From Bacteroidales bacterium UBA3696 (GTDB lineage Bacteria; Bacteroidota; Bacteroidia; Bacteroidales; Paludibacteraceae), in the NCBI GenBank assembly GCA_002372135.1, contig DFIN01000001.1, positions 478 to 64,477 of the forward strand: DNA of 64,000 nt. Direction: 5' to 3'. Below, piece after piece: positions 9,060 through 59,606 of the stretch (its first letter is position 1; each line of letters opens with the position of its first letter). The translations under genes and the position numbers were made by a program. The notes beneath the pieces are model-generated. The model was not told where the DNA came from. It saw only the letters and a list, made by a program, of their open reading frames with translations, and searched no databases.

Positions 9060-9211
9060 AAAAGTACTGCTATTTTTGGTTTCTATGCGGTAAAAAGAGA
9101 AAAAATCTTACTTTTGGGTAATAACCTCACACGAATAGTTAATGTTAGTTTGTCGAATAATGTGCATTTTTGCGCCCGATTTTGATAATAATAAGTAAAT
9201 CAAATAATCCT

Positions 9212-9613
9212 ATGAAGAGAAGTCTATTTATTTTGTGGGTAACGGTGTGTGCTTGTGTGATGCAGGCTGTTGATTACCAGTATCTTGTGTTTGTCAACAC
9301 AAACGGCACAACCACTGCACTGTCTGTCAGCGATATGACACTGACGGTGAGTGGTGGCAATCTGGTGGTAGCGAATACTGACGGAACAGAAACGTTCATG
9401 CTGACCGACTTGGCTGCGATGCAATTCTCAAAGGACGGTACTTTTACGGCATTGGACAACGTTATTAACGGCGATGAGCCGGTGGATGTCTATACCATTG
9501 TCGGCACCACGATTGGGCATTTCGACAATTTATTGCAAGCCACTAAGCAACTCCAAGTCGGCGCGTATGTAATCAAACAAGGTCATAACACGCAAAAGAT
9601 TGTGGTAAAATGA
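9212..9613 (+). CDS. small secreted protein with T9SS-like C-terminal tail
   Basis: Signal peptide MKRSLFILWVTVCACVMQA. C-terminus VDVYTIVGTTIGHF...LQVGAYVIKQGHNTQKIVVK resembles a Por-secretion tail. ATGA overlap with the next gene. Confidence 0.7.
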   Translation: MKRSLFILWVTVCACVMQAVDYQYLVFVNTNGTTTALSVSDMTLTVSGGNLVVANTDGTETFMLTDLAAMQFSKDGTFTALDNVINGDEPVDVYTIVGTTIGHFDNLLQATKQLQVGAYVIKQGHNTQKIVVK

Positions 9614-10581
9614 TGAGTAGTAGTAAGTCGAAAGACAATTGTCGTAAGTCAAAAGTCGAGTACATATTATTCTATTGTTTGTTATCCATTGTTCTATGCC
9701 CGACAGCGCTACGCGCGCAAGTGACTATTGCAGATACAACCTATTATGTGTTAATTACATATAGTGGCAATACAGCAACGGTGGAGATGACTGACGATGT
9801 GAAGAGTTACGTTTCGGCAAGTGTAGATGGCGCTCACGTAACTATTACATCTACTGCTTCTGCCGCAGTCAACGAAATCACGTATGGTCTGGCAGGTAGT
9901 ACAACCAACGGCTCGTTCACGTTCAACGGCAGTTACAAGGCTACGGTGGAATTGTTCGGAGTTACCTTGACCAATCCTGCAGGACCGGCTATTGATATTC
10001 AGAACGGCAAGCGTATAGAGATAAGTGCCAAGAAAGAAACTGTTTCTACGCTAACCGACGGCACATCTACCGAAGAGAGTGCATGGAAAGGGGCTCTGTA
10101 TTGCAAAGGACATATTGAGTTTAAGGGAACACTCAATGTCTATGGTAACTATGCTCATGCTATCAAGGCGGGTAAATATATAGAAATGAAAAACTGCACC
10201 ATCAATGTCTATTCGGCGGTGAAGGACGCCATCAACTGCAATCAGTATTTCTTGATGGAGAGTGGTGAAATCAACCTCAGCGGCTTCGGCGACGATGGCA
10301 TACAGGTAGATATGGAGGATAATGACACATCAGCCGAGAACACAGGCAACTTTACGATGACCGGCGGCACGATTAACATCAACATGACCGGTGCTACCGG
10401 AGAGAGCGTCAAAGCCGATGGGAACCAATCCGTGGCGAGTGAAGCCTTGCTGAATCTAACCACAGGAATAGAGGATGTCCAATCCGCCCGCATGCTCGGT
10501 AACAAAGTGCTGCTTGACGGGAAAGTGCTCATCAAGAAAAACAATCAACTTTATACATTAACAGGCTATGAAATCCAATAA
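9610..10581 (+). CDS. Cthe_2159-like carbohydrate-binding beta-helix protein (secreted)
   Basis: Signal peptide. Repeated GG.I.I....DGI(Q/K) beta-helix rungs. N-terminal region is paralogous to 10568-12562 and 15034-16023. Tail is NKVLLDGKVLIKKNNQLYTLTGYEIQ. Confidence 0.75.
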   Translation: MMSSSKSKDNCRKSKVEYILFYCLLSIVLCPTALRAQVTIADTTYYVLITYSGNTATVEMTDDVKSYVSASVDGAHVTITSTASAAVNEITYGLAGSTTNGSFTFNGSYKATVELFGVTLTNPAGPAIDIQNGKRIEISAKKETVSTLTDGTSTEESAWKGALYCKGHIEFKGTLNVYGNYAHAIKAGKYIEMKNCTINVYSAVKDAINCNQYFLMESGEINLSGFGDDGIQVDMEDNDTSAENTGNFTMTGGTININMTGATGESVKADGNQSVASEALLNLTTGIEDVQSARMLGNKVLLDGKVLIKKNNQLYTLTGYEIQ

Positions 10582-18980: not shown

Positions 18981-19991
18981 ATGTCTCTTTTGCATAAACT
19001 ATTCTGCTTGGAAATCGTTGCTGTCGCTCTTTGCGCGTGTGAGGAGATGTTTTACCACGAAGTGGATTTTCGCGTGGAAGGCGGTCAGCCTAAGTTGGTG
19101 CTTCTGGCTGAGAGCAGGGTAGGGAATATACCCGCTTATCAGGTTACTCATACCAAACTGCTGGATGAAAATACCGGCTCGCAACCGTATTATTTATTGA
19201 TGGATGCCGATGTGCGCTTTCGCCGTAACGGCGGTGAATGGATTCGGCTTTATACGCTGAATGATACGAGTATCTATTGCCTGACCGAAAACGGCGCATT
19301 GCCCCCCGCTATTGGTCCGTTGGATACCATCGAGTTGAAAGTGTCTCATCCCGATTATCCTTCGCTCTACGCAAGGCAAGTGATGCCCGATTATGCCTAT
19401 GCCACTCTCACGCAATACGAAAAGCAGGACAACAATTCGGTACTTCTAACCCTGCATATTGAACCCTATCGTGGCAATGCGGACGATATGATTGCCATTC
19501 GTTCGCAGATGTGGAATGTGTATTCCGTGGACTCCGTATTCGCCAAGGCGCAAAACATGCAAGCCGGTGCCTACTACGGCGCTGACGAAACGTACAGCCT
19601 CTTTTTTCCGGCGGCGTTGTTGTCTCGTTCGTTGGATATACAACTCTTTGCAGATGGAGGAAAGCCCTTTTATACAGAAACGGATACAATCTTCCTGACT
19701 CCGAGAAATCTGAGTCTGACCTGCTCGGTTCTTACTCGCGACGGGTACTTGAATGAACTTTTCCGGCGCACTTATACCCAAACCGAATTGGATGTGCCGA
19801 GTTGGGTACCTCGGCAGAGTGGCAACTGGATGCAAATCATCTTGGAAGGGGTTACCGAAACTTTAGGACAACAGGAATTGCTGTCCGTCTATACCAACGT
19901 TGAGGGCGGGTTAGGCTATCTGTTCGGATGGAGTTCAATGCCTGTCGGCTGTCCGAATACGTTGTACCATGTACCTTCACGCAGGATGTAA
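18981..19991 (+). CDS. DUF4249-like lipoprotein (receptor partner)
   Basis: Lipobox VALCAC. The position immediately after a CarboxypepD_reg-type TonB receptor is typical of DUF4249. C-terminal EGGLGYLFGW. Confidence 0.65.
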   Translation: MSLLHKLFCLEIVAVALCACEEMFYHEVDFRVEGGQPKLVLLAESRVGNIPAYQVTHTKLLDENTGSQPYYLLMDADVRFRRNGGEWIRLYTLNDTSIYCLTENGALPPAIGPLDTIELKVSHPDYPSLYARQVMPDYAYATLTQYEKQDNNSVLLTLHIEPYRGNADDMIAIRSQMWNVYSVDSVFAKAQNMQAGAYYGADETYSLFFPAALLSRSLDIQLFADGGKPFYTETDTIFLTPRNLSLTCSVLTRDGYLNELFRRTYTQTELDVPSWVPRQSGNWMQIILEGVTETLGQQELLSVYTNVEGGLGYLFGWSSMPVGCPNTLYHVPSRRM

Positions 19992-22900
19992 AGCATACCG
20001 TTTTCCATCACTTTACGTACTGACCGATCGTCGGTTGACACAGCCTCGTGATCGGTAGGCGTCTGCGGACGGAATACCAATCTGGCAGGCGTACCACGAC
20101 GAACACTCATATAGCCGGTCTTAGGCACTTGGAAGTAGGCACGGAAACCACGGAGCGGATTGGTCGTATTGGGCCATAACAAGGTGTTGCCATCGCTCAC
20201 AAAGAGGTTGTCATGGTCATAATAAGCCATCTGAACGCGGCATACGTTGCCCACAAACTGAATTCCATCACCTATCGATTGACCGGCATCCGTGGTAATG
20301 GTCACGTTGTTGAATACTAAGTCGGTTAGCACTTCGCCCGTATTGTCCCATTTAATCAGATAGGGTACACCTGCTTCGATGGCGGTAACGGGAGTCATAT
20401 AGATGTCCAACTGCTTGTCCCCCAACTTGACTGCGCCATCGTAGGCGAATAACTGACATCCTGCCAACGGAGAGACGGCTATCTCAGCCTCCGACATACT
20501 GAATGGCAGACACAGCGTATTGAAACTACCGTCCTTGTAGAGCGTGCGCTCTATATGAAGGTTCGGCACGGTCACATTCAGCAGCGGAGTGAAGAACTCA
20601 GTAATCTGCATACTGGTCTCGCTGATGGTGAGCGTACTCTTAGAGCCGGTGGCTGTTCCGCCGTCGGTGTCCAAACGCTTGGCGCGAGGTGCTATGCGGA
20701 TATAAGCAGGGCGGACGGGAGCACCTGCGGGAGAAACCACCATGGCAGACGACACATGGAGGGTCAGTTGCTCACCAGCCTTTTTGCCTTCTAATAATAT
20801 ACCGCGAAAAGGAGGCAGCAGTATAGGCTCGGCATCGGTGGTTACATCGTGGTTAAAACTCGTCTCTGTCCATTTGGACGGAGCGGTAGCCGTTCCGTCA
20901 GGCTCGTAGTAGTACTTGCCTGTGAGTTGATCCGTATTGTCCGCCACCAAGCGGGCTATGTCTATGTAGCCGAAAGTGGGATTGCCAAATAGATAGACAC
21001 CCTCATACTGCTCGTTGAGCGTGAAGGTCGTGTTGCCCGTGAATGCCGGTTTGCCGTAGTCTTCGTCGCGAACGATGAACTCGCTTTCATCCAACCATTG
21101 GGCTGCCAAGCCGTCGTAGTAGTTATACATGTTGTCCACCTGGCAAACGAATCACGGGGGCAGGCGAACCGGCGGCACAATCTATTCCAATCATGCTGGC
21201 ATCACCCGGATGCATGGGACGGGTCAGCGTATTGGTGGCGCGAAGCCACAAGTCATTGGCAGCGTCGTATTCGGAGTTATACACCTCATAGGTATAGCGG
21301 TCGTCAGCATCAGTGCCAGCAATCTGGCGAATAGTCGCCACGGTGAACGGGTCGCTGCCCTCCCACTGCGAGGCAAACACATCGCCGCTGACTATCCCCT
21401 TCAAGGGAACGGATGCCAGAGTCCAACGCTCTGCATTTAGCGGCATATCCACAAAGGCCTGTCCATTGATATTCACCTGTTCTTGCCCTGCCATAGACGC
21501 TCCTGCGGGCAGGTATAGGTGGTGGCACTTGTTCTTAGTATAGTTGAAGTCATACGACTCAACAGCATCGTTCACAAACGTAACCGCATAGTCCTTAGGA
21601 AGCATCACCACATCGGTTTCTTCCATAGGAATAAACGAACTCCAGTTGGCATCTTGATTCCATTCGCCCCCCAACCATGTTACCACATCGGGGACGATGC
21701 GCAAAGTGAAATAGGTATAACCTCTATCGCACTTATCGTCTGCGCTTTCGCCGATGAAAGCGATGTGGAAAGTATAGTCGTATCCGGCAGCCAGGGAGGC
21801 GAGTCTCGCGCCGGAGAGAGTGATGGTATCCACTACATCGATGATTGCCTTGTTAGAGTTCAAGCGTATGGAACGCCATCTCGGGCAGGTAGAGGAAACG
21901 ATATAGATACTGTCCACTTCGTAGTGTTCGCCCGGATCGCCTTTGAGATAAAGGGGCAGGTCGAACGAGCCTCTGCGTTTCTGCGCGTCCGATATACGGA
22001 CGATACGCGGGCGACCGGCTACCACTTCGGGCAGCACTTCTGTTTTGTTGCCGACCGCCATCATATTAGACATCGGTACAGCGGGTTTGATATGCAGGAA
22101 TCGCGGCGAGGTACAAACCTGCTTGCTGCCTGCCGAGCCTGCCAAGGGGAAGGCGGTATAACTGAGTGAGACGGCGGCTTGCATACTGATGGACGCAGTG
22201 TCCAAAGTCAATAGCCCCTGACGAACAAGCGAATTGACGCTCTCAATGGCTGAGGGCACATTGTCGCGGTAGAAAATAAGCAGTCGCTGAATCTCGTCGA
22301 AGGTATGGTGATAGACTTCGGGGTGTTCGTTCACATAGACCGAGTCGCCAATCAGCCAGTCGGCACGGCAGTGGGTGGTGTCTATCTTCAAAGGATCATA
22401 CGGGTCAGTCTCATCACGGATGATCTGCGTTAGCACGATGTTGAGTGTATAGGAACGGTGTCCGCAGACGCTGACTACTGAGTCGCCAAGAGTGATGTCG
22501 TCGTTGATGGTGATGCGCGTACCGCCTGCCACCAGCATGTCGGAAAAGGTGCCGCACCCTTCCCGCTTGCCGAGTTCATCGTGCTGCTGCGATACGAAGC
22601 CGGTATAAGCGTAGTTAGTACGCACTTCCATCGGTTGGGCAATGTAGATGACGTAGCGTTCGGTAGTGGCATCAACCCGCTCTTTGACATAGCGATACAG
22701 AGGCACTTTTGTTTCGCGGTATGCGGCATCAAAAGCCAAAAGAGATGCACTTGTCAGCCCGCTTGCCTCAATCGCTTCGTCGGTGGTGAGAATGGGTACG
22801 CAACCGAACACGGTGGAAGCACTATCCTTGTTGAAGTATTTTGACCTGATGATATTTTCACCCTCGCGCCACTGGTAGAATAGTGGTTGCCCTTCGTGTT

Positions 22901-47990: not shown

Positions 47991-48032
47991 ATGTGCACGG
48001 TGCACGCTACTAACTCAAAAAACAATATACGT

Positions 48033-51000
48033 ATGAAAAAATTTTTCTCCTTTTGTTTGGTGATTGCCGCCGTGTTTCTGACCCTATCTCCGCAGATAGC
48101 GCGGGCGCAGTTAAATGAGTATTTTTCTATCCGAAGTACGTGGTCGGGGGCAACTACGACCATTACGTTCAACGGGAGTGTCAGTGTGGATTTGTGGTAC
48201 TCTACCGACAAGTCCAACTGGACGCAGATTACCGAGACAACCAATATCCCCACGTACAACAAAACCTATTTCAAGGGAAACAACCCGACCGGTTTCAGCA
48301 CAAGTACAACGGATTTTGTGCAGTTCTTGGCAGGAGGGACAAGTCAGGTTTACTACCTTGAGGGCAACATCATGTCGCTCATTAACGGCAATGATTTTGC
48401 GACTAATTATTCCACAATCCCGTCTGATTATTGCTTTTATTCCTTGTTTACCAATAAAGCGGGGTTGAGTAGTGGATATACAGAAACCAATTGGTATGCC
48501 GGCGATTTACTACTACCGGCGGATTATCTGACTCCGCACTGTTACGAGTCGATGTTTGAGCGAACATACGTCAAGACGCAGCCGCAACTGCCTGCGCAGC
48601 ATTTGGCGGAGTATTGCTATCATAAAATGTACTATACCAGTATGTCATTGGATATGCGTACCTCTTATCCCGCTACGCCGATAGAGTATATCCTTCCGGC
48701 GGAGGAGTTGGTGCCGCACTGCTATGAGCATATGTTCGGCATATACAACAACAATCCGACTATTTACCAATATGTAACCATTATGGCAACCTCTTTGCAA
48801 GACCGCAGAGGTGAAGATATTGAAAATTGCCTGAAAGAGATGTTCTATTATGGTGTCGCTCTTAGCTCTACATCCGGCAAATATACCAAATATTTTGTAC
48901 AACTGTTCTTTACGAATTGGGGGGATGTCAGCAAGACAACTTGTCCGACATACAACTGGTTCGGTGGAAATTATAATTGTTCCGGTAACTATTTCTTCTA
49001 TGACGCAAACCTTTCTTGGTCAGTATCTAATATTAAATTGGGATACAGCGGTATTAAATCTCAATTCCCGAATGGAGCATATAGTTGCGAAACGAACAAT
49101 TGTACGAGCTTCTGGGTGCCTGAAGATTACAACTACCTCACTTTCGACTGTAAGACCAACGGCGGCACATGGGAGGCGGATGACGACTACAACACCGACC
49201 TCCGCCGCGTGGTGCGTGCCGGCTACACTGCCAAGACGGTGCCTGCCGCTCCGCACAAGTTAGGTTGCACCTTCCTCGGCTGGTACACCGCTCCCTCTGG
49301 AGGTACGAAAGTGGATAACGCCACTATCCTCTCACAGACAACGGCGCAAACCTACTACGCGCAGTTCATACCTAACGATGTGGACTACACCATCACCATC
49401 GCCAACGGCGAACACGGACACGTAGTCGTAACGCGCAACAACGAACCGACTGCCACTTACACCACCACCTCTTCGGTGCACAATATGTCCGAACTGACTA
49501 TCACTGCCGTTCCCGATGCAGGCTACCGCTTCAAAGCATGGACAGGCGATGCCGCCACTATCAAAACAGCTGAAGACAATGGCACCACCTACTACCTTGT
49601 TAACGACATCACCGTAGGTGCCACCTTCGAAGCCGACGAATGCACCGTGACGATTAACACCCCTGCATCCAACGGTACGCTGGCTGCATCCGACGGCACG
49701 AACAACTACGCTTCGGGCAATACCTACACTTTCAACCGCCAATTAGACCTCAACAAGGTGCTGACCTTTACTGCCACACCTGCCACACACCGCCTCTTCA
49801 CAGGCTTCACGGTAACGGGTGCGGAATTGAGCAACATTACAGCAGCCCACACCCCGTATCAATATGATGATGTGGTAACGGCTCAATACACCATCACCGC
49901 CTCCACACCGGACGAGGTGACGGTAGACGCGACCTTCGTCAAACCGACCTACACAGTCTCCACGTCCATCACCGGCAAGAACGGCGGTTATGTCACCCTG
50001 ACAGCCGACGGCTATGCTGACCAGACCGGCAGCGGAACGTATGACATCGACACCCGCGTGACCCTGACCGCCACGCCGAACAACGCGATGTTCAAATTCG
50101 TCAAATGGACTGACAATGACAGCGACAACCCCGTGCGTGTCATTACAGCGCTGACTAGTGATATAGCTCTCTCAGCCGAGTTTGACTTGGAGGGCGAACT
50201 CTGGTCCGCTCCCGCTACGGTGGATGTCTATTCGTCAGGTGTCACCCCGACCTGCACTTCTACTATTACAACATCCAACTATCGCATCCTGTATAATTTG
50301 GATCCCGTTAAAGGTAGTGACAACATTACCTATACGCCTGTGGATATGGGTGCAGGTGTCGCTTGGGCGGACAAGAACATCGGTGCCACCGACCCGACCA
50401 AGGCGGGCAGTTACTTCTATTGGGGAGGCACAAAAGCCTACGGGGAAGAAGGTTATACAACGGTATCAAGTTCAAACTACTATAAAGGAGTGGCGGATAT
50501 GACGGCGACCACATCAACAGCTGTCGCCGCGCAGTATCCTTTACCCACTGAAGCTGATGCCGCAACGCAAAAGATGGGCGGGCAATGGCGTATGCCTACT
50601 TACTATGAGATGAATAATCTCATTTCTTCCACTTACACAAGTAGTGCGCAGGTTAATTATAACTATACAGTTACCAACAAGTACTACACAGACGATAAGA
50701 TTTTTATTCCTGCCGGAGGACGATATGAAACCACTTTGTCCAAAGGTGCGGCATACCTTTGGACAAGTACCGTAGCTGGTAAGAACGGAGCCAGCAGCAA
50801 ACCGTGGGTATATTATAATCACGCGATGAGAGGCAATGTTACTACCACTGGAAATTCTGTGGCTTATTATGCTCTGCCTGTCCGTGCCGTCTATGTCCCG
50901 TCGTTCGAGACCTGCACGCTGCAAGTGCTTGTCTATTGGGCATCTACGCTGAAATGGACTTACAACTACATCTGTGAGGTCGGTCAGACCGTCACCATCC

Positions 51001-54000
51001 GTCAGCATCCTGCCGCAAGCGGATACAAGTTGTCGGCTTGGAGGGAGAACACTTACTCGGGTACCGAACTCTCCACGGACAATAGTTATACTGTGACGCT
51101 TACAGGGAACCAGACGATAGCGGCGCATTACATCTCCGCCACCACCTATCAGCTGACCACCAAAGCCTCTCCGCTCAAGGGCGGAACGGTGGATGGCGGT
51201 GGTTATTACCCAACCGGTACAAGCGTTACGCTTACCGCCACACCGAATGCCAACTACCGCTTTGTGCGCTGGTCGGACGGCAATACCGACAATCCGCGTA
51301 CTTACACTACCACAAACGCGGCTGTTACGCTTACGGCGGAGTTTGAAGGCTATGTGACGGGCGTTACATCCTCTACAGCCAACGTGGATGTGTTCGCTTA
51401 CACCGCTAACACCAACTGCTACAAGATTCTCTACGACCTGCCATCAGAGGTGAACGGCTACCGTCCTGTGGATATGGGTAATGGCGTGGCCTGGGCTAAC
51501 AAGAACCTCGGTGCAGCCGATAGTACGGCTTCGGGCAACTACTATGTCTGGGGCACGACCTCTCCGTTCACATCGGTGGCCACAGGCACTTATTATGCAG
51601 GCGCAATGGATATACCGCTGACCACCTCAACGACTCTCAGTGCGCAATATGCTTTGCCTGCCGATTCGGATGCCGCTACGGTGAATATGGGTGAGCGGTG
51701 GCGTATGCCGAATTATGCGGAAATCTATTACCTCGCCAATCCTAACGGAGCCACGGAAGCAGGTGCTGCCGCAACGGGTTTCACATATACCAACAAACTC
51801 AGTGGCGAGAAATTGTTCATTCCGGCAGCAGGTTACCATAACAAAGTTGGGAATACTCCCTCCTCAACACCTACATCCGGAACGTACTTCTGGGGTAGCA
51901 CGGTTGGAAAATTCAATGCCAACGGCTATCAGTGTGTAGCTTCCTGCTATCAAAGCGGTGGGGCGTTGTATAACAATACAACATACGGATATGTGTATTA
52001 CGCCATGCCTGTCCGTGCTGTCTATGTGCCGCCGTTCGAGACCTGCACGCTGAAAGTAACCGTGACAGGTCTTAACCAGGTAGGCAACGGCACAAGCACC
52101 TATTACTATTATTATATCTGCGAAGTAGGTCAGCGCATTCGTATCACCGCGCAACCGCACTCCGTGGGTTCTACGGGCTTTACCTACGCCTTCACGCAGT
52201 GGACCGATGATGACAATAGCAGTGCCGTGGTGGGGACGGACCCGACTCTCGACTTCGTCATCGCGGGCAACACCAACTACACCGCCACTTTTGCTTCCAC
52301 CACCAATTTCTCCACCATTCACGCTTTGCCACAACCCCGCTCCGGCGGATATGTCTATGGCGTAGGGCGTTATAAGAATGGCGTTACTACGCGGCTGCAC
52401 GCTGTGCCGGAAGAGGGCTGGACTTTCGTCCGCTGGGAGGACAACAACTCTACCAACCCCTACCGTGAGATAACCGTCAATGGCGATGCATCCTACAATG
52501 CCGTCTTCACCTCTGCCGTACCCGCTGCGGCTTCGGCACACAAGTACGTCAATGTATGGCACGAAGCAACCACCACCACAACGGAAACACTCTATGACGG
52601 TTCGCCCCTTGAGACTTGCACGCTGACGGTCAAGACTTATCAGTCGAATAGCGCCAAGGCTACCTACAACTTCGTTTGCGAAAAAGGACAAACCGTCACG
52701 GTGAGTGCGTTCACCAACACCGCCAACTACTCGCTCCTGCACTGGACCAATTTGGAGTACGACATAATGAGTTACGACCCGACAGTGGAGTTGGTGGTAA
52801 CGGAAGACATCACCTACATCGCTACGTTCTATACCACGCGTGCAACGACCCGTACACTGACGCTTGACTGTACGCCGCGAGAGGGAGCAATTTTTGATGG
52901 TGCTATTAAGGGGAACACCAACCATATCGGCGTGTATGAGGACGGTCAGGTGACCAAACTTGTCTGCCATCCGAATCCGCACTACCGCTTCCTCTATTGG
53001 GACGATGACCACTCGCTGACTGACACGGCGCGTATCGTCACTGTAACGGAGGATAGGACATATACCGCTGTATTGGAGATGGATTATGACCTCACTACCG
53101 TACATTCCGAGGATGCTTTCGCGCAGGTTTATCAAGGCGGTACTTATCAGGGTACGTACCTGCGTTACGCCCTGCCGGGCTATGATGCCAACGGCTACCG
53201 CCCCGTGGATGTGGGTGTCGGTGTGGCATGGGCGAACAAGAACATCGGAGCCGCTGACAGCACCAAGGCGGGCGACTATTTTGTCTGGGGTCTTACCACT
53301 CCCGCCACTACGGTCAGCAGCAGCGGAACCAACTACTGGACGGGTGTCACCTCAATGTCCTCAACCCTGACTTCAAGCAACACAGCTGTGCAGTATCCGC
53401 TTCCCGCCGCCAATGATGCCGCAACGCAGATTATGGGCGAGCGGTGGCGTATGGCGACTTATCAGGAGATATACAATCTGGCTAATGTGACAGGCAGCGG
53501 TTCCACCGAGGAAGGCCAGGCATCAGCAGGATTCAGATATACCAACAAGGAGGACAATTCGCAGTTCATCTTTATCCCTGCAGCCGGATGCAAGAAGACA
53601 TCGGGTACGGAAACGGTAACAACCGGTACAACCCACTTCTGGGGCAGCACGGTCAAGTCTGTCAGTGCCGCTTCATCCCAGCCTACATACTACTTGAATG
53701 GCGGTTGTTCAGCGGGTTCCACCACTTACTATGCATGGAACGCCATGCCAATCCGCGCCGTCTATGTGCCGCCGTTCCAGACCTGCTCCGTAACGGTGAA
53801 GACTCCTACCAATCAGTATATGTACATCTGCGAGGTAGGTCAGCGCATCACCATCACCGCTTTCTATGGGGCTGCCACGGCAACCAGTCAGAATTATCGT
53901 GTGCGTGACTGGATAGACCAGAACAATGTCATTGTTTCCACCGACCAGACCTATTCCTTCATCGCTCTGTCGAATGTGACACTGACAGTGAATTTTGTCG

Positions 54001-57000
54001 CTCCCACTACGAAACGCACGCTTACCTTCAATGTGTCGCCTGCCGGAACAGGTACAGTGAACAACCTTGCGACTTTTGTCGGCAACTATGAGGACGGTCA
54101 GCATGTGCGTATTCCCGTGAAGGCTGCGGAGAACTACCGCTTCTCGCATTGGTCGGACGATGAAAACAACACCGATCCGAATCGTATCTTCACTGCCACA
54201 GCCAATGCTACTTACACCGCAGTCTTCGAACCCGATGAAGCACAAGCCGCTGACGCACACATAGCACAGGCTGCCACTCGTGACACAACGAAGATTCTCT
54301 ATCCGCTGCCCGTATTGACGAAGAACAATATGTTCTATACGCCGGTGGATATGGGTACGGGTACCGCTTGGTGCGACTACAATGTGGGCGTTACCAATCC
54401 GACCAGTCCTAACGGATATTATTTCCTTTGGGGTGGAAATGCCAACAAGACTTCCACCTATAAGACAACCACTTACACATCAGGAGCAGTTACAAATACC
54501 ACAGAAGGCGGCGATTTGCCATACAACACCACTTACGATGCCGCTTTGTATCAAATGGGTACAGGTTGGCGCGTACCGAGTAAAGAGCAGTGGGATGCCC
54601 TTGTGGATAAGTGCTCAACGGAAACAGAGAACACTTTTGTCAATCCTACGGATGCTACTAAGTCCATCACCTTGCCTAAGGCGGGTTCGTATGCACCGAA
54701 TACCACATCCAATTATAGCACGCTATCCAATAATCCTGCTTTAGCAGCCTATTGGAGTCGCACTTTGGCTCATAAAGACAATACGGCATACAATAGTCAG
54801 CCGTGGTGCTATCTTGACGGAGAAGTGAAGTATGGCGCGGATATACCTATATCAGGTCGTCAAGGTTATGTCAGCTACGGTATGCCTGTCCGTGCCGTCT
54901 ATCAACCTTCGTTCACGCCTTGCACGCTCACCGTGCGTTACACCAACGATGAGGAAGTAACCCGCACCAATACCTATCTCTGCCAGCCCGGACAGCCCGT
55001 CCGCATCACAGCCATTCCGTCAGAAGGCTATGTCTTCAAGAAATGGAACGACAACGATACGCACGCCGAGCGCACTATCTTCATCTCTGAAGATATGACC
55101 CTCACCGCCGAGTTCGAGGAAGCCAATGCAGGTTCCGCTCTGATTATCACGCAGGTGAACAACGGCGAGTGGGGTAGTGTAACCGGCGGCGGCGAATATG
55201 ATAAAGGTGCTGCCGTGACGCTGACCGCACAACCCGAAGAGCATTACCACTTCGTTAAGTGGCAACTCAACGATGCGGACATAGTGGGCGGTGCCACGCT
55301 TAATTTCACCGCGACCGCTATCGCCACCTACAAGGCGTTCTTCGCCATTGACGAGCATACCCTCACCACAACCGCGACGAACGGAACGGTAACAGGCGGC
55401 GGTACCTACGACTACGGCACCACAGGCGTTACGCTAACTGCCACAGCCGACGACCATTACCACTTCGTCAAATGGCAACTCAACGGCGAGGACATACCGG
55501 GCGAAGCCTCCCTCACGGTGGACGTAACTGCCGATGCAACTTATAATGCCGTCTTCGCTATCGACCGCCATACGCTTTCCGTCACCGCTACCAACGGAAC
55601 GGCAACCGGCAGTGGCGAGTATGACTACGGCACCGTGGTAACGCTCGGCGTGACACCCGACGAACACTACCATTTCGTTTCGTGGTCGGACGACGGCGCA
55701 CAGAGCCACAGCGTAACCGTAACCGCTGATGCCGAATACACGGCAACCTGCTCTATTGACCGCTTCACGCTGACCGTCAACGGCTCGAACGCCACTGTCA
55801 CAGGTGCGGGCGAGTACGACTACAACACGCAGGTAACGGTTACCGTCTCGCCCGATATGGGCTATAACTTCGTCCGCTGGACCGACGGTGAGACCAACCC
55901 GTCGCGCATCGTAACAATGACGGAGAACAAGACGCTTGCTTATGAGACCGTTTATGTGCCTTCGTATGCGATTACGACCGTAGCCAACGGCGGTGTTATT
56001 TATCAGACAGCTGACCGCTACGAACAGCAGAACGGTCCGACTACCTATAGTTATATGAACGGTACGGTGCTGACCCTTGAGGTGGCTGCTTCCTTCGGCT
56101 ATGCGTTCACGGGCTGGTCAGATGGCAACAGCGACAACCCGCGTGTCGTAACCGTGACGGAGGCAAAGACCTACACCGCCGAGTTCGACGAGCAGACGCA
56201 TATCGTGTTCCATAAGACCACGGGTGTATTGGACTTCCCGACCTATGCGAAGAACACGTTTGCCGTTATAGGCGAGACAGACGATGTGACGTTCCGTCTG
56301 TACTTCAATACGGCTATCAGCACCAACAAGACCGACTACCTGTCGAACCTCTCGCTCGATGCTTCGCAGTCGTATATTCAACCTACGGTAGGAGCTAAAC
56401 GCACCATCGCTTCCGCGACCGTAGCGAATGTAGAATACTTCGGAAATCAGATTCGTGCGGCACACCTTACGGCAATGCTGACTGACACGGAAGGCAGAAC
56501 ATACGATGTGGATATCTATACCAATGAGATGATTAACTATGCCACCTATCAAGAAGATTATACGTATAAGTATTATTCGTCTTATTTGTCCACAGAGTCA
56601 AGTTGGGTAAGCGGTCGCACGCTATTCAAGGCAGGTGAAGAAAACAACTTCCCGCTGAATATAGTCAATGCCAACTACCATACCTTGGGTTATTGGTACA
56701 GCATTGCAGGTTCGTCCGCATACGATATTATCAATATCAAGTTGCAGTTTATAACGGACGAAAGCAAGCCCGGTGTTGTGCCGACAGGAGTTTATCCTAT
56801 CAATAGCACGCAACAACCCGGTACGGCTTTCATTGGTGTGATACCGTCTAACTACATAGAGCGTCAAACCAATAACAATGCATTGAACTATGGCTGTGTA
56901 GTCTTCCGGGATTACCACGACCAAAGCACCTATGTGCGTACAACAGACAACTGGACGCTGCGCGGCGGATATATTGAGGTAGTCAATGTGGACGAACAGT

Positions 57001-59606
57001 ACTATGTTCACGTTCACGCCACTGCTGACGCTTATCGCACCAACGGAGAAGCCGCCAATACATTGTTAGACTTCACTTTGGGTGGTAGCGGCAATAATGA
57101 CGTGCCGCAACCTGTTGCCATTACGCTTTCCGCACAAACCGTAGGTGGCGAGGCACTGACCGATGCCGTTACGGCTACCCTTGCAGGCGCAAGCAACTGG
57201 ACGGATGTCGAGATAGGTCAAGGCAGTCACACTTTCTTTAGCGGCAATACGCTCAACCTGACCGCCGCCAAACCCGGCTATGTGTTCAGCCATTGGACCG
57301 TAAACGGCATCACCGTGGCGGGCGAGGATTACACCTACGCTTATACGGTAGGCGCAGCCGATGCCGCCATCGTAGCCGTCTTCGAGTTGGATACCCGTCC
57401 GTTCTACACCATCGCTGCCGAGACAGGCGGTCGCGGTACGGCAACGCTCACGGCAGACGGCTACAAGCCGCAGACCGGCAGCGGCTATTATGCCGAGAAC
57501 ACCAACGTAACGATAACCGTTGCAGCCGGTACGGGGGCTACCTTCCTCGGCTGGGACGACAATAACGACGGCACGGTTGACAACACGCAGAACCCGCGCA
57601 CCGTTACCGCTACGGCAGACAAGACCTATACGGCAGTCTTCGGTCTCGAATCGGCTGACCAAGCAGTCAATGTCTATCAGGCGGCTGCGGCAGACACCAC
57701 CAAGATTCTCTATAACCTCGACCCGAAGACAGGTGCTGACGGACTGACCTACCAACCCGTGGATATGGGTTACGGCGTGGCTTGGGCAGACCGCAATGTG
57801 GGTGCAAATCAGCCGACCAATGTAGGTAAGTATTTCTATTGGGGCGATACCGAAGGACATACGTCGTTTAATGCCTATCAGGCTTTGAACACGAGTAGTT
57901 ATACTTCGGGTACGACCTTGACACCTGATTTGGATGCTGCCACGCAACAGATAGGAACGGCTTGGCGTATGCCGACAGATGAAGAGTGGCTCGATTTGAG
58001 AAAAAACACCACCCAATCGGCTGATCACGGTACATTTATGAATAAAACCTATGCAGGAAATACCATTTATTTGCCCGCGAGCGGATTCTATGGTACAACG
58101 TATAGGAATTTGTATCTATATGGCGATGAGGGTCCGTGGACTTCTAAATTATTTACTAACTACCGTTTCTATTGGTCAAGTGTTTATTTCGTGCAGAATG
58201 CTTCTAATGGTCTTGCTTTCCCATATACGTTTGAAGATGTCGAAGCCGATGCTAACAACTACTATCATGTCAATACAAACGTAACGCTCAACAGCACATC
58301 CTACGGCTTCTTCGACTGTTTCGGTATGCCTGTCCGCGCTATCTACGAACCTGAATATCCGACTTATACGCTGACTATCAAGGTTGGCGGGCAGCAGTAC
58401 AAGTACATCTGCCAAGCCGGTCAGAACATCACTGTAACCGCCAATGCCACCACTGAAGGTTATGTCTTCGACGAATGGAAGATGGAAGACGGTACCACCA
58501 CCGATGAGACGGATACCCACCTTGCTACCCGCACGTTCACGATGACCGGTAACATCACCCGCACTGCCACCTTCAAGGAGGGGCAGTCAACCTTCACCGT
58601 TACATGGAAGAACGCAGACGGTACGACCCTCGAAACGGATGAACAGGTAGAAGCAGGTGCTACGCCTGCTTACGATGGCGAAACACCCGCTAAGGTGTCC
58701 GACGAGACGTATTACTACACCTTCGTAGGTTGGACCGATGGAGTTACCGACTATGCCGCTGACGAGGCTCTGCCTGCCGTAACCGGCGATGTTACCTATA
58801 CAGCCCGTTTCCAAGCCTACTTACGTGAACTCCTGCTCTTGGATTCGGAGGATGCAGACTATTACGACAATATCCGTCTGCTGAACGGTCAGCACTTCGA
58901 GCAAATCACCTATCGTCGCTCCGTGGCATACACCAAGGACGACAACGGCAATGCACGTTGGTACACGCTCACCCTGCCTTTCAATGCAGACCAAAGCCAA
59001 TTAGCAACCAACGGGCTGCTCCGCAAGGTCTATGAATACCGCTATGCCGAAGGTTCGGCGGACGAGAACGACCATGTTACCTTCCACTTCCGCGCTGCCA
59101 CCTCTATCATAGCCGGACGTGGTTATCTGGTCAAAGCCACTTCGCTTATGCCTACCGACTATGCCTTCGCGGATGTTACACTCGATACGGGTAAGGATAC
59201 AGAAACGGATGTCAATAAACTCAAATACAATTCCGCTAACGCTTACAAAGAGAGTGGCGATATAGCCATCGTGGGTGTATTGCGCCACGGCACATTGAGT
59301 CAAGACGGACGCAAAGTGATGGGCTTGGCAAACAATAAGATTTGGTATCCGCACACGAATGGTAACCCCATGCCTGCTTACCGCGCGTACTTCTACAACC
59401 CCAATGCTACCAAGAATATACCTCGTGTACGCATTGTAGTAGAGGGTGAAGGAGAGACCGAGTTGGAAGTAGTGGATGGCGAACTCTATGATGCAGGCGG
59501 GGACGACCGCGCTCCCGGCAACAATGTGCGCAAGTACATGGAGAACGGCATTCTTATCATTGAGCGCAACGGCGAACGCTTCAACGCACAAGGAAAGAGG
59601 CTATAG
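48033..59606 (+). CDS. giant (3857 aa) modular surface protein: signal peptide, degenerate LRR region, InlB-B repeats, five FISUMP/DUF1566-like modules, shared C-terminal domain and tail
   Basis: MKKFFSFCLVIAAVFLTLSPQIARAQ. LP..L...CY..MF repeats. Many G/HY.F..W repeats. Five Y.PVDMG.GVAWA.KN.G...WRMP...E...L...FIPAAG...PVRAVY modules. Tail is VRKYMENGILIIERNGERFNAQGKRL. Uninterrupted 11.6-kb ORF. Confidence 0.9.
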   Translation: MKKFFSFCLVIAAVFLTLSPQIARAQLNEYFSIRSTWSGATTTITFNGSVSVDLWYSTDKSNWTQITETTNIPTYNKTYFKGNNPTGFSTSTTDFVQFLAGGTSQVYYLEGNIMSLINGNDFATNYSTIPSDYCFYSLFTNKAGLSSGYTETNWYAGDLLLPADYLTPHCYESMFERTYVKTQPQLPAQHLAEYCYHKMYYTSMSLDMRTSYPATPIEYILPAEELVPHCYEHMFGIYNNNPTIYQYVTIMATSLQDRRGEDIENCLKEMFYYGVALSSTSGKYTKYFVQLFFTNWGDVSKTTCPTYNWFGGNYNCSGNYFFYDANLSWSVSNIKLGYSGIKSQFPNGAYSCETNNCTSFWVPEDYNYLTFDCKTNGGTWEADDDYNTDLRRVVRAGYTAKTVPAAPHKLGCTFLGWYTAPSGGTKVDNATILSQTTAQTYYAQFIPNDVDYTITIANGEHGHVVVTRNNEPTATYTTTSSVHNMSELTITAVPDAGYRFKAWTGDAATIKTAEDNGTTYYLVNDITVGATFEADECTVTINTPASNGTLAASDGTNNYASGNTYTFNRQLDLNKVLTFTATPATHRLFTGFTVTGAELSNITAAHTPYQYDDVVTAQYTITASTPDEVTVDATFVKPTYTVSTSITGKNGGYVTLTADGYADQTGSGTYDIDTRVTLTATPNNAMFKFVKWTDNDSDNPVRVITALTSDIALSAEFDLEGELWSAPATVDVYSSGVTPTCTSTITTSNYRILYNLDPVKGSDNITYTPVDMGAGVAWADKNIGATDPTKAGSYFYWGGTKAYGEEGYTTVSSSNYYKGVADMTATTSTAVAAQYPLPTEADAATQKMGGQWRMPTYYEMNNLISSTYTSSAQVNYNYTVTNKYYTDDKIFIPAGGRYETTLSKGAAYLWTSTVAGKNGASSKPWVYYNHAMRGNVTTTGNSVAYYALPVRAVYVPSFETCTLQVLVYWASTLKWTYNYICEVGQTVTIRQHPAASGYKLSAWRENTYSGTELSTDNSYTVTLTGNQTIAAHYISATTYQLTTKASPLKGGTVDGGGYYPTGTSVTLTATPNANYRFVRWSDGNTDNPRTYTTTNAAVTLTAEFEGYVTGVTSSTANVDVFAYTANTNCYKILYDLPSEVNGYRPVDMGNGVAWANKNLGAADSTASGNYYVWGTTSPFTSVATGTYYAGAMDIPLTTSTTLSAQYALPADSDAATVNMGERWRMPNYAEIYYLANPNGATEAGAAATGFTYTNKLSGEKLFIPAAGYHNKVGNTPSSTPTSGTYFWGSTVGKFNANGYQCVASCYQSGGALYNNTTYGYVYYAMPVRAVYVPPFETCTLKVTVTGLNQVGNGTSTYYYYYICEVGQRIRITAQPHSVGSTGFTYAFTQWTDDDNSSAVVGTDPTLDFVIAGNTNYTATFASTTNFSTIHALPQPRSGGYVYGVGRYKNGVTTRLHAVPEEGWTFVRWEDNNSTNPYREITVNGDASYNAVFTSAVPAAASAHKYVNVWHEATTTTTETLYDGSPLETCTLTVKTYQSNSAKATYNFVCEKGQTVTVSAFTNTANYSLLHWTNLEYDIMSYDPTVELVVTEDITYIATFYTTRATTRTLTLDCTPREGAIFDGAIKGNTNHIGVYEDGQVTKLVCHPNPHYRFLYWDDDHSLTDTARIVTVTEDRTYTAVLEMDYDLTTVHSEDAFAQVYQGGTYQGTYLRYALPGYDANGYRPVDVGVGVAWANKNIGAADSTKAGDYFVWGLTTPATTVSSSGTNYWTGVTSMSSTLTSSNTAVQYPLPAANDAATQIMGERWRMATYQEIYNLANVTGSGSTEEGQASAGFRYTNKEDNSQFIFIPAAGCKKTSGTETVTTGTTHFWGSTVKSVSAASSQPTYYLNGGCSAGSTTYYAWNAMPIRAVYVPPFQTCSVTVKTPTNQYMYICEVGQRITITAFYGAATATSQNYRVRDWIDQNNVIVSTDQTYSFIALSNVTLTVNFVAPTTKRTLTFNVSPAGTGTVNNLATFVGNYEDGQHVRIPVKAAENYRFSHWSDDENNTDPNRIFTATANATYTAVFEPDEAQAADAHIAQAATRDTTKILYPLPVLTKNNMFYTPVDMGTGTAWCDYNVGVTNPTSPNGYYFLWGGNANKTSTYKTTTYTSGAVTNTTEGGDLPYNTTYDAALYQMGTGWRVPSKEQWDALVDKCSTETENTFVNPTDATKSITLPKAGSYAPNTTSNYSTLSNNPALAAYWSRTLAHKDNTAYNSQPWCYLDGEVKYGADIPISGRQGYVSYGMPVRAVYQPSFTPCTLTVRYTNDEEVTRTNTYLCQPGQPVRITAIPSEGYVFKKWNDNDTHAERTIFISEDMTLTAEFEEANAGSALIITQVNNGEWGSVTGGGEYDKGAAVTLTAQPEEHYHFVKWQLNDADIVGGATLNFTATAIATYKAFFAIDEHTLTTTATNGTVTGGGTYDYGTTGVTLTATADDHYHFVKWQLNGEDIPGEASLTVDVTADATYNAVFAIDRHTLSVTATNGTATGSGEYDYGTVVTLGVTPDEHYHFVSWSDDGAQSHSVTVTADAEYTATCSIDRFTLTVNGSNATVTGAGEYDYNTQVTVTVSPDMGYNFVRWTDGETNPSRIVTMTENKTLAYETVYVPSYAITTVANGGVIYQTADRYEQQNGPTTYSYMNGTVLTLEVAASFGYAFTGWSDGNSDNPRVVTVTEAKTYTAEFDEQTHIVFHKTTGVLDFPTYAKNTFAVIGETDDVTFRLYFNTAISTNKTDYLSNLSLDASQSYIQPTVGAKRTIASATVANVEYFGNQIRAAHLTAMLTDTEGRTYDVDIYTNEMINYATYQEDYTYKYYSSYLSTESSWVSGRTLFKAGEENNFPLNIVNANYHTLGYWYSIAGSSAYDIINIKLQFITDESKPGVVPTGVYPINSTQQPGTAFIGVIPSNYIERQTNNNALNYGCVVFRDYHDQSTYVRTTDNWTLRGGYIEVVNVDEQYYVHVHATADAYRTNGEAANTLLDFTLGGSGNNDVPQPVAITLSAQTVGGEALTDAVTATLAGASNWTDVEIGQGSHTFFSGNTLNLTAAKPGYVFSHWTVNGITVAGEDYTYAYTVGAADAAIVAVFELDTRPFYTIAAETGGRGTATLTADGYKPQTGSGYYAENTNVTITVAAGTGATFLGWDDNNDGTVDNTQNPRTVTATADKTYTAVFGLESADQAVNVYQAAAADTTKILYNLDPKTGADGLTYQPVDMGYGVAWADRNVGANQPTNVGKYFYWGDTEGHTSFNAYQALNTSSYTSGTTLTPDLDAATQQIGTAWRMPTDEEWLDLRKNTTQSADHGTFMNKTYAGNTIYLPASGFYGTTYRNLYLYGDEGPWTSKLFTNYRFYWSSVYFVQNASNGLAFPYTFEDVEADANNYYHVNTNVTLNSTSYGFFDCFGMPVRAIYEPEYPTYTLTIKVGGQQYKYICQAGQNITVTANATTEGYVFDEWKMEDGTTTDETDTHLATRTFTMTGNITRTATFKEGQSTFTVTWKNADGTTLETDEQVEAGATPAYDGETPAKVSDETYYYTFVGWTDGVTDYAADEALPAVTGDVTYTARFQAYLRELLLLDSEDADYYDNIRLLNGQHFEQITYRRSVAYTKDDNGNARWYTLTLPFNADQSQLATNGLLRKVYEYRYAEGSADENDHVTFHFRAATSIIAGRGYLVKATSLMPTDYAFADVTLDTGKDTETDVNKLKYNSANAYKESGDIAIVGVLRHGTLSQDGRKVMGLANNKIWYPHTNGNPMPAYRAYFYNPNATKNIPRVRIVVEGEGETELEVVDGELYDAGGDDRAPGNNVRKYMENGILIIERNGERFNAQGKRL

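Follow-up and report, generated by a model that had tools for sequence, protein, structure and literature searches.

A very short C-terminal tail on Sec-exported proteins of Paludibacteraceae as a probable motif-permuted T9SS signal

C-terminal signals described for the T9SS

The closest described counterpart of the tail reported here is the class of "short" type A CTDs of Prevotella intermedia (Ye et al., Open Biol 2025, PMC11969387), and that paper credits an earlier study of the same group (its reference 28) with first noticing them. In these domains motif B is followed, after a gap of 1–6 residues, by motif D (GxY/GxN-I) and then by motif E with K/R at the end; the PT/GI sortase site of P. 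intermedia, with Ile at +2, was found experimentally (PMC11969387). Like the tail, the short CTDs stand at the extreme C-terminus of Sec-exported adhesins, LRR and beta-helix proteins and peptidases, have a P-T/G-I motif with I/V at +2, which lies within a disordered linker some 10 residues ahead of the first strand, and are predicted to form a single three-stranded sheet. The tail appears slightly shorter after the motif (mostly 34–41 residues, median 38, among the tails of the genome, just under the published range of 40–55), and it differs in its order, with the D-like motif ahead of the B-like one rather than B, D, E. Because all of its turns are tight N/D-G turns, it has no counterpart to the long B–D loop of the P. 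intermedia short CTD, which is said to enter PorV, and the K-K-x-x-I-K ending is absent. Furthermore, the tail was found here in Paludibacteraceae, from sequence and structure prediction, whereas the short CTDs are those of Prevotella.

The canonical type A CTD (TIGR04183/PF18962) resembles the tail as a terminal cargo signal where the genome encodes a full T9SS and in its motif-B-like Y-x-x-x-G-x-x-V strand; however, it has 70–85 residues in a seven-stranded sandwich, compared with 25 folded residues and three strands in the tail, and the two are mutually exclusive on any single protein. T9SS types B (TIGR04131, with a cognate PorP/SprF carrier) and C (NF033708) are also alternative signals missed by the type A models, but neither model matches the tail. 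For P. gingivalis Hbp35, PMC11969387 cites the last 22 residues (motifs D and E) as the minimal secretion determinant, a case in which a C-terminal stretch of about 20–25 residues can be enough for T9SS export and attachment. This minimal piece consists of the motifs found essential according to that source, whereas the tail ends in a motif-B-like strand and lacks terminal D/E strands in their usual place.

The five tails of the window

Five tails had been described in the window, that is, the whole stretch of 64,000 nucleotides analysed, from an uncultured Paludibacteraceae bacterium; their translations and coordinates proved correct in all five cases. One of them ends a giant surface protein, a 3871-aa adhesin encoded at 47991..59606 (+), which has a Sec signal peptide, InlB-B/Listeria-Bacteroides repeats and a "..AFRAYF.." pre-tail module. 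Its linker and tail occupy 59487..59603 (+; G000:C34:59964-60080, 49.5 bits), with the core RKYMENGILIIERNGERFNAQGKRL at 59526-59603 and the stop codon at 59604-59606 (+), and the adhesin subfamily to which this tail belongs is without the TGI motif. The 323-aa Cthe_2159 beta-helix protein, encoded with its signal peptide at 9610..10581 (+), ends in a T-G-I-E-D-V linker and the tail NKVLLDGKVLIKKNNQLYTLTGYEIQ (10453..10578, +). The remaining three tails lie on the minus strand: a G-I-E-N-V linker with RKVIYNGQLFIIRPDGKIYNAQGMQVR (3730..3855, -) in the 3' fragment of a frameshifted LRR/InlB-repeat gene; a P-T-D-V-E-N-V linker with RKVIRNGVLYIERNGTLYNAQGAELR (6010..6135, -; 64.7 bits) in the 3' fragment of another frameshifted gene; and a P-T-D-H-E-A-V linker with RKVMENGMLYILREGTWYNVFG (19946..20065, -), which is joined to an unannotated pre-tail module (..NTLCLPF..GFRAYF..ARLVF..; 19916..20740, -) and followed by extra residues before the stop codon at 19916-19918.

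The hosts had been said to include LRR proteins, a beta-helix protein and the giant adhesin. Comparison of the translations by eye suggests that the 3727 and 6007 genes are paralogues, so the five tails stand on four architectures rather than five. Of the hosts, those at 9610 and 47991 have signal peptides; 3727-4470, 6007-6396 and 19916-21139 are C-terminal frameshift pieces without a signal peptide of their own. Four of the tails end at a stop codon, whereas the tail at 19916-20065 (-) is followed by 7–10 further residues, a figure that depends on the model used.

The 22–26 residues originally taken as the conserved unit are too few, as a P-T-G-[IV]-[ED] motif is also conserved about 12 residues upstream. 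The folded tail comprises 25 residues, or about 38 with the linker, in which K18, G23 and G38 are invariant and I27 nearly so. The tail opens with a strand that resembles motif D (x-L-Y-I-x-R-x-G); its final strand, adjoining the stop codon, resembles motif B (x-Y-N-A-x-G-x-x-V). In AF2 models of two hosts, a three-stranded sheet is predicted after a disordered linker: in the Cthe_2159 host the pLDDT is below 50 at residues 287-292 and the strands lie at 298-302, 305-310 and 313-315, and in the 19916 host the corresponding positions are 230-238 and 241-246, 249-254 and 257-259. In both, the low-pLDDT linker directly follows the T-G/T-D site, and the three short strands have a pLDDT of about 80–86.

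The window also holds two comparators. A small exported protein (9170..9613, +) has a conventional B-D-E short/medium CTD (TALDNV..VDVYTIVGTTIG..GAYVIKQGHNTQKIVVK), to which no Pfam or NCBIfam model matched, and the gene at 1609..2886 (-) ends in a long type A CTD that scored slightly below the cut-offs of both TIGR04183 (21.9 bits) and PF18962 (20.3 bits).

Occurrence, passengers and known signal models

The C-terminal census and the check for internal occurrences, both suggested with the preliminary description, were carried out. A profile built from the five tails, compared with all 33,284 stop-to-stop frames of the 70%-complete genome, matched 44 frames (E 7e-15 to 0.19), and in all 44 the match ended 0–7 residues before the stop; no internal or tandem tail was present among them. 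At least 44 proteins of this bacterium thus end in the tail. About 33 of the 44 frames begin with a signal peptide of the MKK-hydrophobic-AxA type, the others being contig-edge or frameshift fragments. When a profile made from the window sequence only was compared with 1.84 billion representative proteins, 5,812 cluster representatives matched at E<=0.001; among the best 150 of these, 148 matches ended no more than 5 residues from the C-terminus and 125 exactly at it. The tail was present in 15 of 33 sampled genera of the family. The passengers include C10 and S8 peptidases, a GH13 amylase, LRR proteins, endonuclease I and giant adhesins, which are typical T9SS cargo. The view that Sec-exported proteins carry a conserved tag confined to their C-terminus is therefore upheld, and the tail behaves like a sorting signal, as had been suggested.

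The same data bear on whether the tail recurs merely as an artefact, through recent paralogy or gene conversion within a few surface-protein families. At least nine adhesin paralogues do share their last ~600 nt at 77–88% identity, and the resemblance of the 3727 and 6007 genes points the same way. Yet the tails are just 29–51% identical to one another, unrelated enzymes are found among the hosts, and the tail is terminal in all 120 best C10 peptidase homologues (38–94% identity), that is, it is kept down to 38% passenger identity as well as across 15 of the 33 genera sampled. This explanation is already contradicted by the census results, and we give it almost no credence.

It also appears quite unlikely that the tail is a structural or binding element retained in the mature proteins, such as a lectin-like or oligomerisation hairpin, rather than a signal that is removed. 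An unrelated phage-tail-fibre-like protein (P0274) does contain similar G-x-L-Y-I-x-x-N-G hairpins as internal repeats, and in the adhesin subfamily, which has no TGI motif, the tail belongs to a conserved C-terminal block that is larger, about 200 aa. The tail, by comparison, is strictly terminal across thousands of unrelated proteins, is never tandem or internal in the genome, always has a variable, disordered linker between itself and the passenger, and is interchangeable with a cleavable secretion signal (see below).

No Pfam or NCBIfam model, including those for T9SS types A, B and C, matched the tail. TIGR04183 and PF18962 gave no match in the five host proteins at E<=1 or in 30 isolated tails at E<=10; the earlier statement that the tail fits no defined sorting-domain model is thus confirmed, with none of the 30 tails matching the curated T9SS models at E<=10. 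Several specific assignments were rejected. A canonical type A CTD with B, D, E order is contradicted by a MAFFT alignment of homologues and by hhalign with single and duplicated tails, which put the B-like strand at the end, after the D-like one; a seven-stranded beta-sandwich is contradicted by the three short strands given by AF2 in two hosts, and hhalign probabilities against long CTDs were 14–18%. A type B CTD (TIGR04131) was dismissed on the lack of a model match and on the position of the sole PorP-family gene of the genome, which is not beside a tail gene, and a type C signal (NF033708) on the lack of a match at E<=10 in 30 tails. As the tail is hydrophilic, with predicted beta-strands and no hydrophobic stretch by sequence and AF2, it has no hydrophobic helix of the kind that stands between a signature motif and a basic tail in PEP-CTERM/LPXTG-like tripartite exosortase/sortase signals, and no such NCBIfam model matched.

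Relationship of the tail to short CTDs and the T9SS

The preliminary description set the tail apart from the T9SS and assigned it to no described system. Our analysis ties it to the T9SS instead, because it takes the place of B-D-E type short CTDs in close homologues, has the P-T/G-I motif in common with them and is similar to them in permuted profile comparison. Across 149 representatives, the P-T-G-[IV]-E linker motif has T in 73%, G in 62%, I/V in 80% and E in 84%, and by its sequence it matches the PT/GI sortase site of P. intermedia. Within the genome, 27 of 44 tails have the TGI motif, and about a third, the giant-adhesin subfamily, are without it.

Two unrelated passenger families have members with the tail and close homologues with a B-D-E type short CTD at that position, in either case after the same P-T-G-I motif. 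Among the best 120 homologues of the Cthe_2159 protein, 114 have the tail and six have a B-D-E type CTD in its place (..TALDNI..VEIYSLSG..KGIYI..KKIIIR), with 55–61% full-length identity; TIGR04183 matches four of these six (E 0.003–0.23). Among 120 homologues of the pre-tail module, about 75 end in ..TTGI..WYSLDGVRLSGKPTQRGMYINKGKKILVK and about 35 in the tail, and the TGI motif precedes both endings. The ..TTGI.. set agrees in detail with the published account of short CTDs (PMC11969387), the GxN-I subgroup included; TIGR04183 does not recognise this short-CTD comparison set, which was identified solely by its fit to that description. One conventional-CTD homologue, P0238, has a different gene neighbourhood and is therefore a homologue and not a syntenic orthologue.

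Aligned with 72 short CTDs by hhalign, the tail places its last strand on motif B (probability 85%, E 6e-6, score 22.9). When the tail was duplicated in tandem, 34 of 38 CTD columns were aligned across the junction (probability 91%, score 28.8), whereas 150 column shuffles scored 9.1 +/- 2.8 (maximum 18.6) for the single and 9.2 +/- 2.7 (maximum 18.1) for the duplicated tail. At the level of profiles, the tail is thus significantly similar to short CTDs with the motif order permuted. The homologues with B-D-E order nevertheless differ visibly from the tail, the best alignment of which needs the permutation.

The proposed check for co-occurring T9SS genes showed that the genome encodes PorP, PorK, PorL, PorN, PorM (366 bits), PorU (1017 bits), PorV (440 bits) and PorQ (311 bits), and Sov (~2,700 bits) is present in all five complete genomes of the genus. 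However, since PorU was found in 143 of 151 genomes of the family, the co-occurrence of the tail with the T9SS is uninformative within it. The genome has one PorP-family gene, inside a porPKLMN operon, and one PorU; no PorP-family gene in the genome is next to any tail gene. PF18962 matches number four in the genome and 3–21 in the genus members with at least 47 tails, compared with 18–44 in five tail-free relatives of similar genome size (1.7–2.0 Mb).

These data also allow a sorting or anchoring signal outside the T9SS to be weighed, for instance one that docks into an outer-membrane partner by adding a strand or that binds a surface glycan non-covalently, with its likeness to CTDs due to convergence of small beta-hairpins. 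The failure of every T9SS model, a motif order unlike that of any described CTD, the lack of the D/E strands thought essential in P. gingivalis and the uninformative co-occurrence all agree with such a signal, and the motifs of the tail are indeed short beta-hairpin patterns. It is less easily reconciled with the swaps in two passenger families, the common P-T-G-I linker motif, a permuted profile match far above the shuffled controls, and the existence of tail-rich genomes with a full T9SS yet few canonical CTDs. Moreover, no candidate for another machinery came to light in the genome, which has a single PorP-family gene and a single PorU, and no other Bacteroidota route is known to export proteins as long as 3,800 aa that are not lipoproteins. 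We therefore regard a signal outside the T9SS as improbable.

In conclusion, the tail is probably a motif-permuted miniature T9SS signal, very short and missed by standard domain models, and in sequence it appears related to the three-stranded short type A CTD, with the motifs reordered. We infer that the tail proteins are secreted as follows. The host protein would reach the periplasm via Sec by means of an ordinary type I signal peptide, and its last ~25 residues would fold as a three-stranded beta-meander, which the Sov translocon and the PorV shuttle may bind and recognise as CTD-like. The sortase PorU would then cut the disordered linker at P-T|G-[IV]-[ED], about 38 residues from the end, and attach the mature protein to a surface glycolipid.

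Position, conservation and hosts of the tail

All five translations agreed with the preliminary description, in which one short ending was read on five different proteins of the window. The hosts are two LRR-type proteins (genes at 3727 and 6007), a Cthe_2159 beta-helix protein (9610-10581), the product of the 19916 gene and a giant adhesin of 3871 aa (47991-59606). The stop codon directly follows the tail in four of these hosts, and a few extra residues follow it at 19916-20065 on the minus strand. All five tails are real. Three of the five hosts are 3' fragments of frameshifted genes. The 3727 and 6007 genes look paralogous, and the hosts are thus less diverse than described. The split surface-protein genes (3727-5132, 6007-7389 and 19916-24431, all on the minus strand) consist of two or three overlapping frames each. 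Some of the breaks fall at C-runs according to the first reading of the window sequence, and the splitting could reflect phase variation, decay into pseudogenes or assembly errors in homopolymers.

The genome to which the window belongs (1.48 Mb in 47 contigs, 70% complete, 0.19% contamination) was searched with a profile of the five tails. Among its 33,284 stop-to-stop frames, 44 matched (E 7e-15 to 0.19); the match ended 0-7 residues before the stop in every one of the 44, and none was internal. About 33 of these frames begin with a type I signal peptide, the remainder being contig-edge or frameshift fragments. A profile built solely from window sequence gave 5,812 matches at E<=0.001 against 1.84 billion representative proteins, and in 148 of the best 150 of these representatives the match lay within 5 residues of the C-terminus. 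A motif as frequent inside proteins as at their ends had been named as a finding that would speak against a terminal signal; the genome and public censuses clearly gave no such picture, the tail being strictly C-terminal. The sole internal match among the best 150 representatives is P0274, an unrelated phage-tail-fibre-like repeat protein of 979 aa, whose four internal repeats PT(D/S)xNxEGRxVxxDGxLYIYxNGxW resemble the linker together with strands one and two of the tail.

Across 30 aligned tails, K18, G23 and G38 are invariant and I27 nearly so. Some 12 residues upstream of the tail stands a second conserved element, P-T-G-[IV]-[ED], which 27 of the 44 genome tails carry at a distance of 34-41 residues (median 38) from the C-terminal end. 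The tail falls outside the models of Pfam and NCBIfam: these, including the ones for T9SS types A (TIGR04183, PF18962), B and C (NF033708), matched neither the tails of the five host proteins at E<=1 nor 30 isolated tails at E<=10. A signal of the exosortase or sortase type was ruled out, the tail being hydrophilic and predicted to form beta-strands.

The passengers that precede the tail are mutually unrelated and include a GH13 amylase, C10 and S8 peptidases, BspA-type LRR proteins, endonuclease I, the Cthe_2159 beta-helix protein and giant proteins with InlB-B repeats, the largest of which has 3,877 residues. Among homologues of the C10 peptidase, the best 120 (38-94% identity) carry the tail without exception. 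Despite the kinship of the 3727 and 6007 genes, we consider it extremely improbable that the recurrence of the tail is an artefact of paralogy. The last 600 nt or so of the giant adhesin (58900-59600, plus strand) are 77-88% identical at the nucleotide level to the 3' ends of at least eight other adhesin genes, located on contigs C7, C8, C9, C10, C19, C28 and C38 of the same genome. Several of these copies lie at contig ends, and therefore this paralogue family probably breaks the assembly.

Exchange with conventional sorting domains

The T9SS C-terminal sorting domain (CTD) contains motifs B, D and E in this order and has long, medium and short forms. Two of the passenger families carry either the tail or a CTD-like ending. 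The tail ends 114 of 120 homologues of the beta-helix protein (9610-10581). In the other six, which are 55-61% identical throughout the passenger, the terminal sequence is ..TALDNI..VEIYSLSGxxxG..(15 residues)..KGIYI...KKIIIR, a CTD of the B-D-E type like that of the neighbouring gene 9170-9613; TIGR04183 matches four of the six, below threshold. One of the conventional proteins, P0238, was rejected as a positional orthologue because of its different gene neighbourhood, and the swapped proteins are thus regarded as homologues only.

The second exchange concerns an unannotated module of about 150-190 aa, which directly precedes the tail in about 15 of the 44 tail proteins. It was found in the window at 19916-20740 (minus strand) and at about 58950-59480 (plus strand, within the giant adhesin), as well as in about 13 other tail genes of the genome. 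Its motifs, [LV]C[LV]PF about 200 residues and [KR]AFRAYF about 70 residues from the end, occur together in no tail-free frame of this genome. The module had no match in Pfam or NCBIfam; its AF2 model is confident (pLDDT above 90), and a Foldseek search against the PDB gave nothing significant (best E 0.04, TM-score about 0.1).

Approximately 35 of 120 homologues of the module of the 19916 gene end in the tail (the two named ones are both Paludibacteraceae), and about 75 end in ..TTGI(L/E)xV..(8-12 residues)..WYSLDGVRLSGKPTQRGMYINKGKKILVK (the four named ones are all 'Bacteroidaceae bacterium' MAGs). [quoted passage not shown] We therefore take it as a putative short CTD of this type, identified by the published description alone; TIGR04183 and the curated models do not match this Prevotella-type set. 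P. intermedia is, according to this paper, the sole species for which both kinds of CTD are on record; cleavage was demonstrated there for five short CTDs, and cargo with short CTDs was glycosylated (PMC11969387). Thus, the module that precedes the tail in the window's genome precedes Prevotella-type short CTDs in other lineages. In a further homologue, P0435, a C-terminal dockerin (PF00404) stands in place of any T9SS-type tail, and hence the same passenger seems to have been combined with three different attachment devices.

Motif order, predicted fold and secretion machinery

The last strand of the tail (x-Y-N-A-x-G-x-x-V) corresponds to CTD motif B, both in a MAFFT alignment of homologues and in hhalign comparisons with long CTDs. 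With 17 long CTDs of the genus, hhalign aligned 12-23 columns at a probability of 14-18%, which by itself is too weak for homology, and with seven medium CTDs the probability was 1-3%. Against 72 distinct short CTDs, motif B was aligned with a probability of 85% (E 6e-6, score 22.9). When the tail was duplicated in tandem, 34 of the 38 columns of the short-CTD profile were aligned across the junction (probability 91%, score 28.8), in the order of motif B from the first copy, K-V-x-x-N-G opposite the B-D loop and L-Y-I-x-R-x-G opposite motif D (G-x-Y-I-x-N-G-K-K). The scores of 150 column shuffles were 9.1 +/- 2.8 (maximum 18.6) for the single and 9.2 +/- 2.7 (maximum 18.1) for the duplicated tail; with the tail reversed, scores were near 10 for the single as well as the duplicated form. 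Since the alignment of the duplicated tail crosses the junction and scores above the shuffled and reversed controls, it bears the usual signature of a circular permutation of the motifs (D-like first, B-like last). By its place after the D-like strand the third strand would correspond to motif E, and by its sequence to motif B.

AF2 models, built with family alignments for two unrelated hosts, both show a confidently modelled passenger, followed by a disordered linker and then by three short strands with a pLDDT of about 80-86. In the host 9610-10578 (mean pLDDT 83), the linker falls below 50 at residues 287-292, directly after T285-G286, and the strands span 298-302, 305-310 and 313-315; in the host 19919-20740 (mean pLDDT 82), the corresponding positions are 230-238, 241-246, 249-254 and 257-259. 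The same architecture was described for P. intermedia's short CTDs (PMC11969387). With the tail replaced by CTDs on related passengers, we regard a structural hairpin retained on the mature protein as a very unlikely explanation.

The genome contains a porP-K-L-M-N operon, a porU-porV pair (1017 and 440 bits) and porQ. PorK reached 243 bits against a curated cut-off of 350 because runs of N (masked or withheld bases) interrupt the gene; such runs affect both porM and porK (C19:66811-70187). SprA/Sov was not found with TIGR04189 and PF14349, which is not evidence of absence, since the genome is 70% complete and the genus has five complete genomes, each of which contains Sov (about 2,700 bits). 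No extra PorP paralogues were found in the genome, and a second PorV-like gene adjoining a tail gene, considered as a dedicated carrier, proved to be an ordinary PorQ. Co-occurrence with T9SS is uninformative as evidence, PorU being present in 143 of 151 genomes of the family. PF18962 matches number 4 in the window's genome, 3-21 in members of the genus and 18-44 in five tail-free relatives of 1.7-2.0 Mb; in this small sample of related genomes, a scarcity of canonical CTDs in tail-rich genomes is no more than suggestive. A few proteins on contigs C18 (o10116, o9951) and C22 (o14323) end in B-D-E short or medium CTDs, e.g., ..RMIYTITGMPIGEKMPQERGIYIVKTGSNAEKIIIK, and therefore the predicted long, short and permuted signals coexist in one cell.

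The preliminary description set the tail apart from the T9SS tails of the window and could not assign it to a described system; the presence of the T9SS genes, the swaps with CTDs and the permuted similarity to short CTDs speak for a link to T9SS, and a T9SS-independent anchor, for which the lack of any matching domain model might speak, appears unlikely. The position of the tail, the signal peptides and T9SS genes, the exchange with CTDs, the permuted similarity and the fold prediction were observed or computed, and we consider it likely that the tail is a miniature, motif-permuted T9SS signal with the P-T/G-I linker as the PorU site. PorV and Sov would recognise the tail, which may then be cleaved at this linker, with glycan anchoring of the cargo. 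It is conceivable, though rather doubtful, that the tail forms a distinct class of T9SS signal instead of a trimmed short CTD, i.e., a permuted mini-domain with motif B beside the free C-terminus and without the B-D loop. In that case, engagement by PorV or Sov would need a different geometry, the cargo of the subfamily without the TGI motif might be handled differently (e.g., released and not anchored by PorU), a 25-residue sheet would be enough for T9SS recognition, and the classical motif order would not be essential.

Distribution and significance

The tail was found in all eight genomes of the window's genus, with 31 to at least 48 tails (up to 98 candidates) per genome, and genomes of 14 other genera of the family had 1-14 (151 genomes, 33 genera). 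Within the order (201 genomes, 167 genera), it occurs in the genus itself and as a single match in each of three other genomes; in a phylum sample of 301 genomes, it is absent from all 298 outside the genus. According to these counts, the tail is a feature of Paludibacteraceae, hugely expanded in the window's genus. The literature searched describes short CTDs in P. intermedia only, and searches for a permuted, rumen or Paludibacteraceae T9SS tail yielded only Ye et al. (PMC11969387).

As a miniature permuted T9SS signal, the tail of 25 residues would narrowly constrain what can be recognised by PorV and Sov, and would cast doubt on the notion that motifs D and E, the final two strands, need to stand at the terminus. 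It would also serve as a very small secretion tag in the engineering of Bacteroidota. The prediction of T9SS cargo relies almost everywhere on TIGR04183, PF18962 and TIGR04131. In this genus, a genome of 2 Mb contains at least 47 tails, in comparison to the handful of proteins found by standard T9SS models. In these rumen and gut Bacteroidales, the secreted peptidases, amylases, LRR proteins and giant adhesins are therefore for the most part annotated without an export signal at present, and with a model of the tail, 5,800 or more protein clusters (50% identity level) would be recovered.
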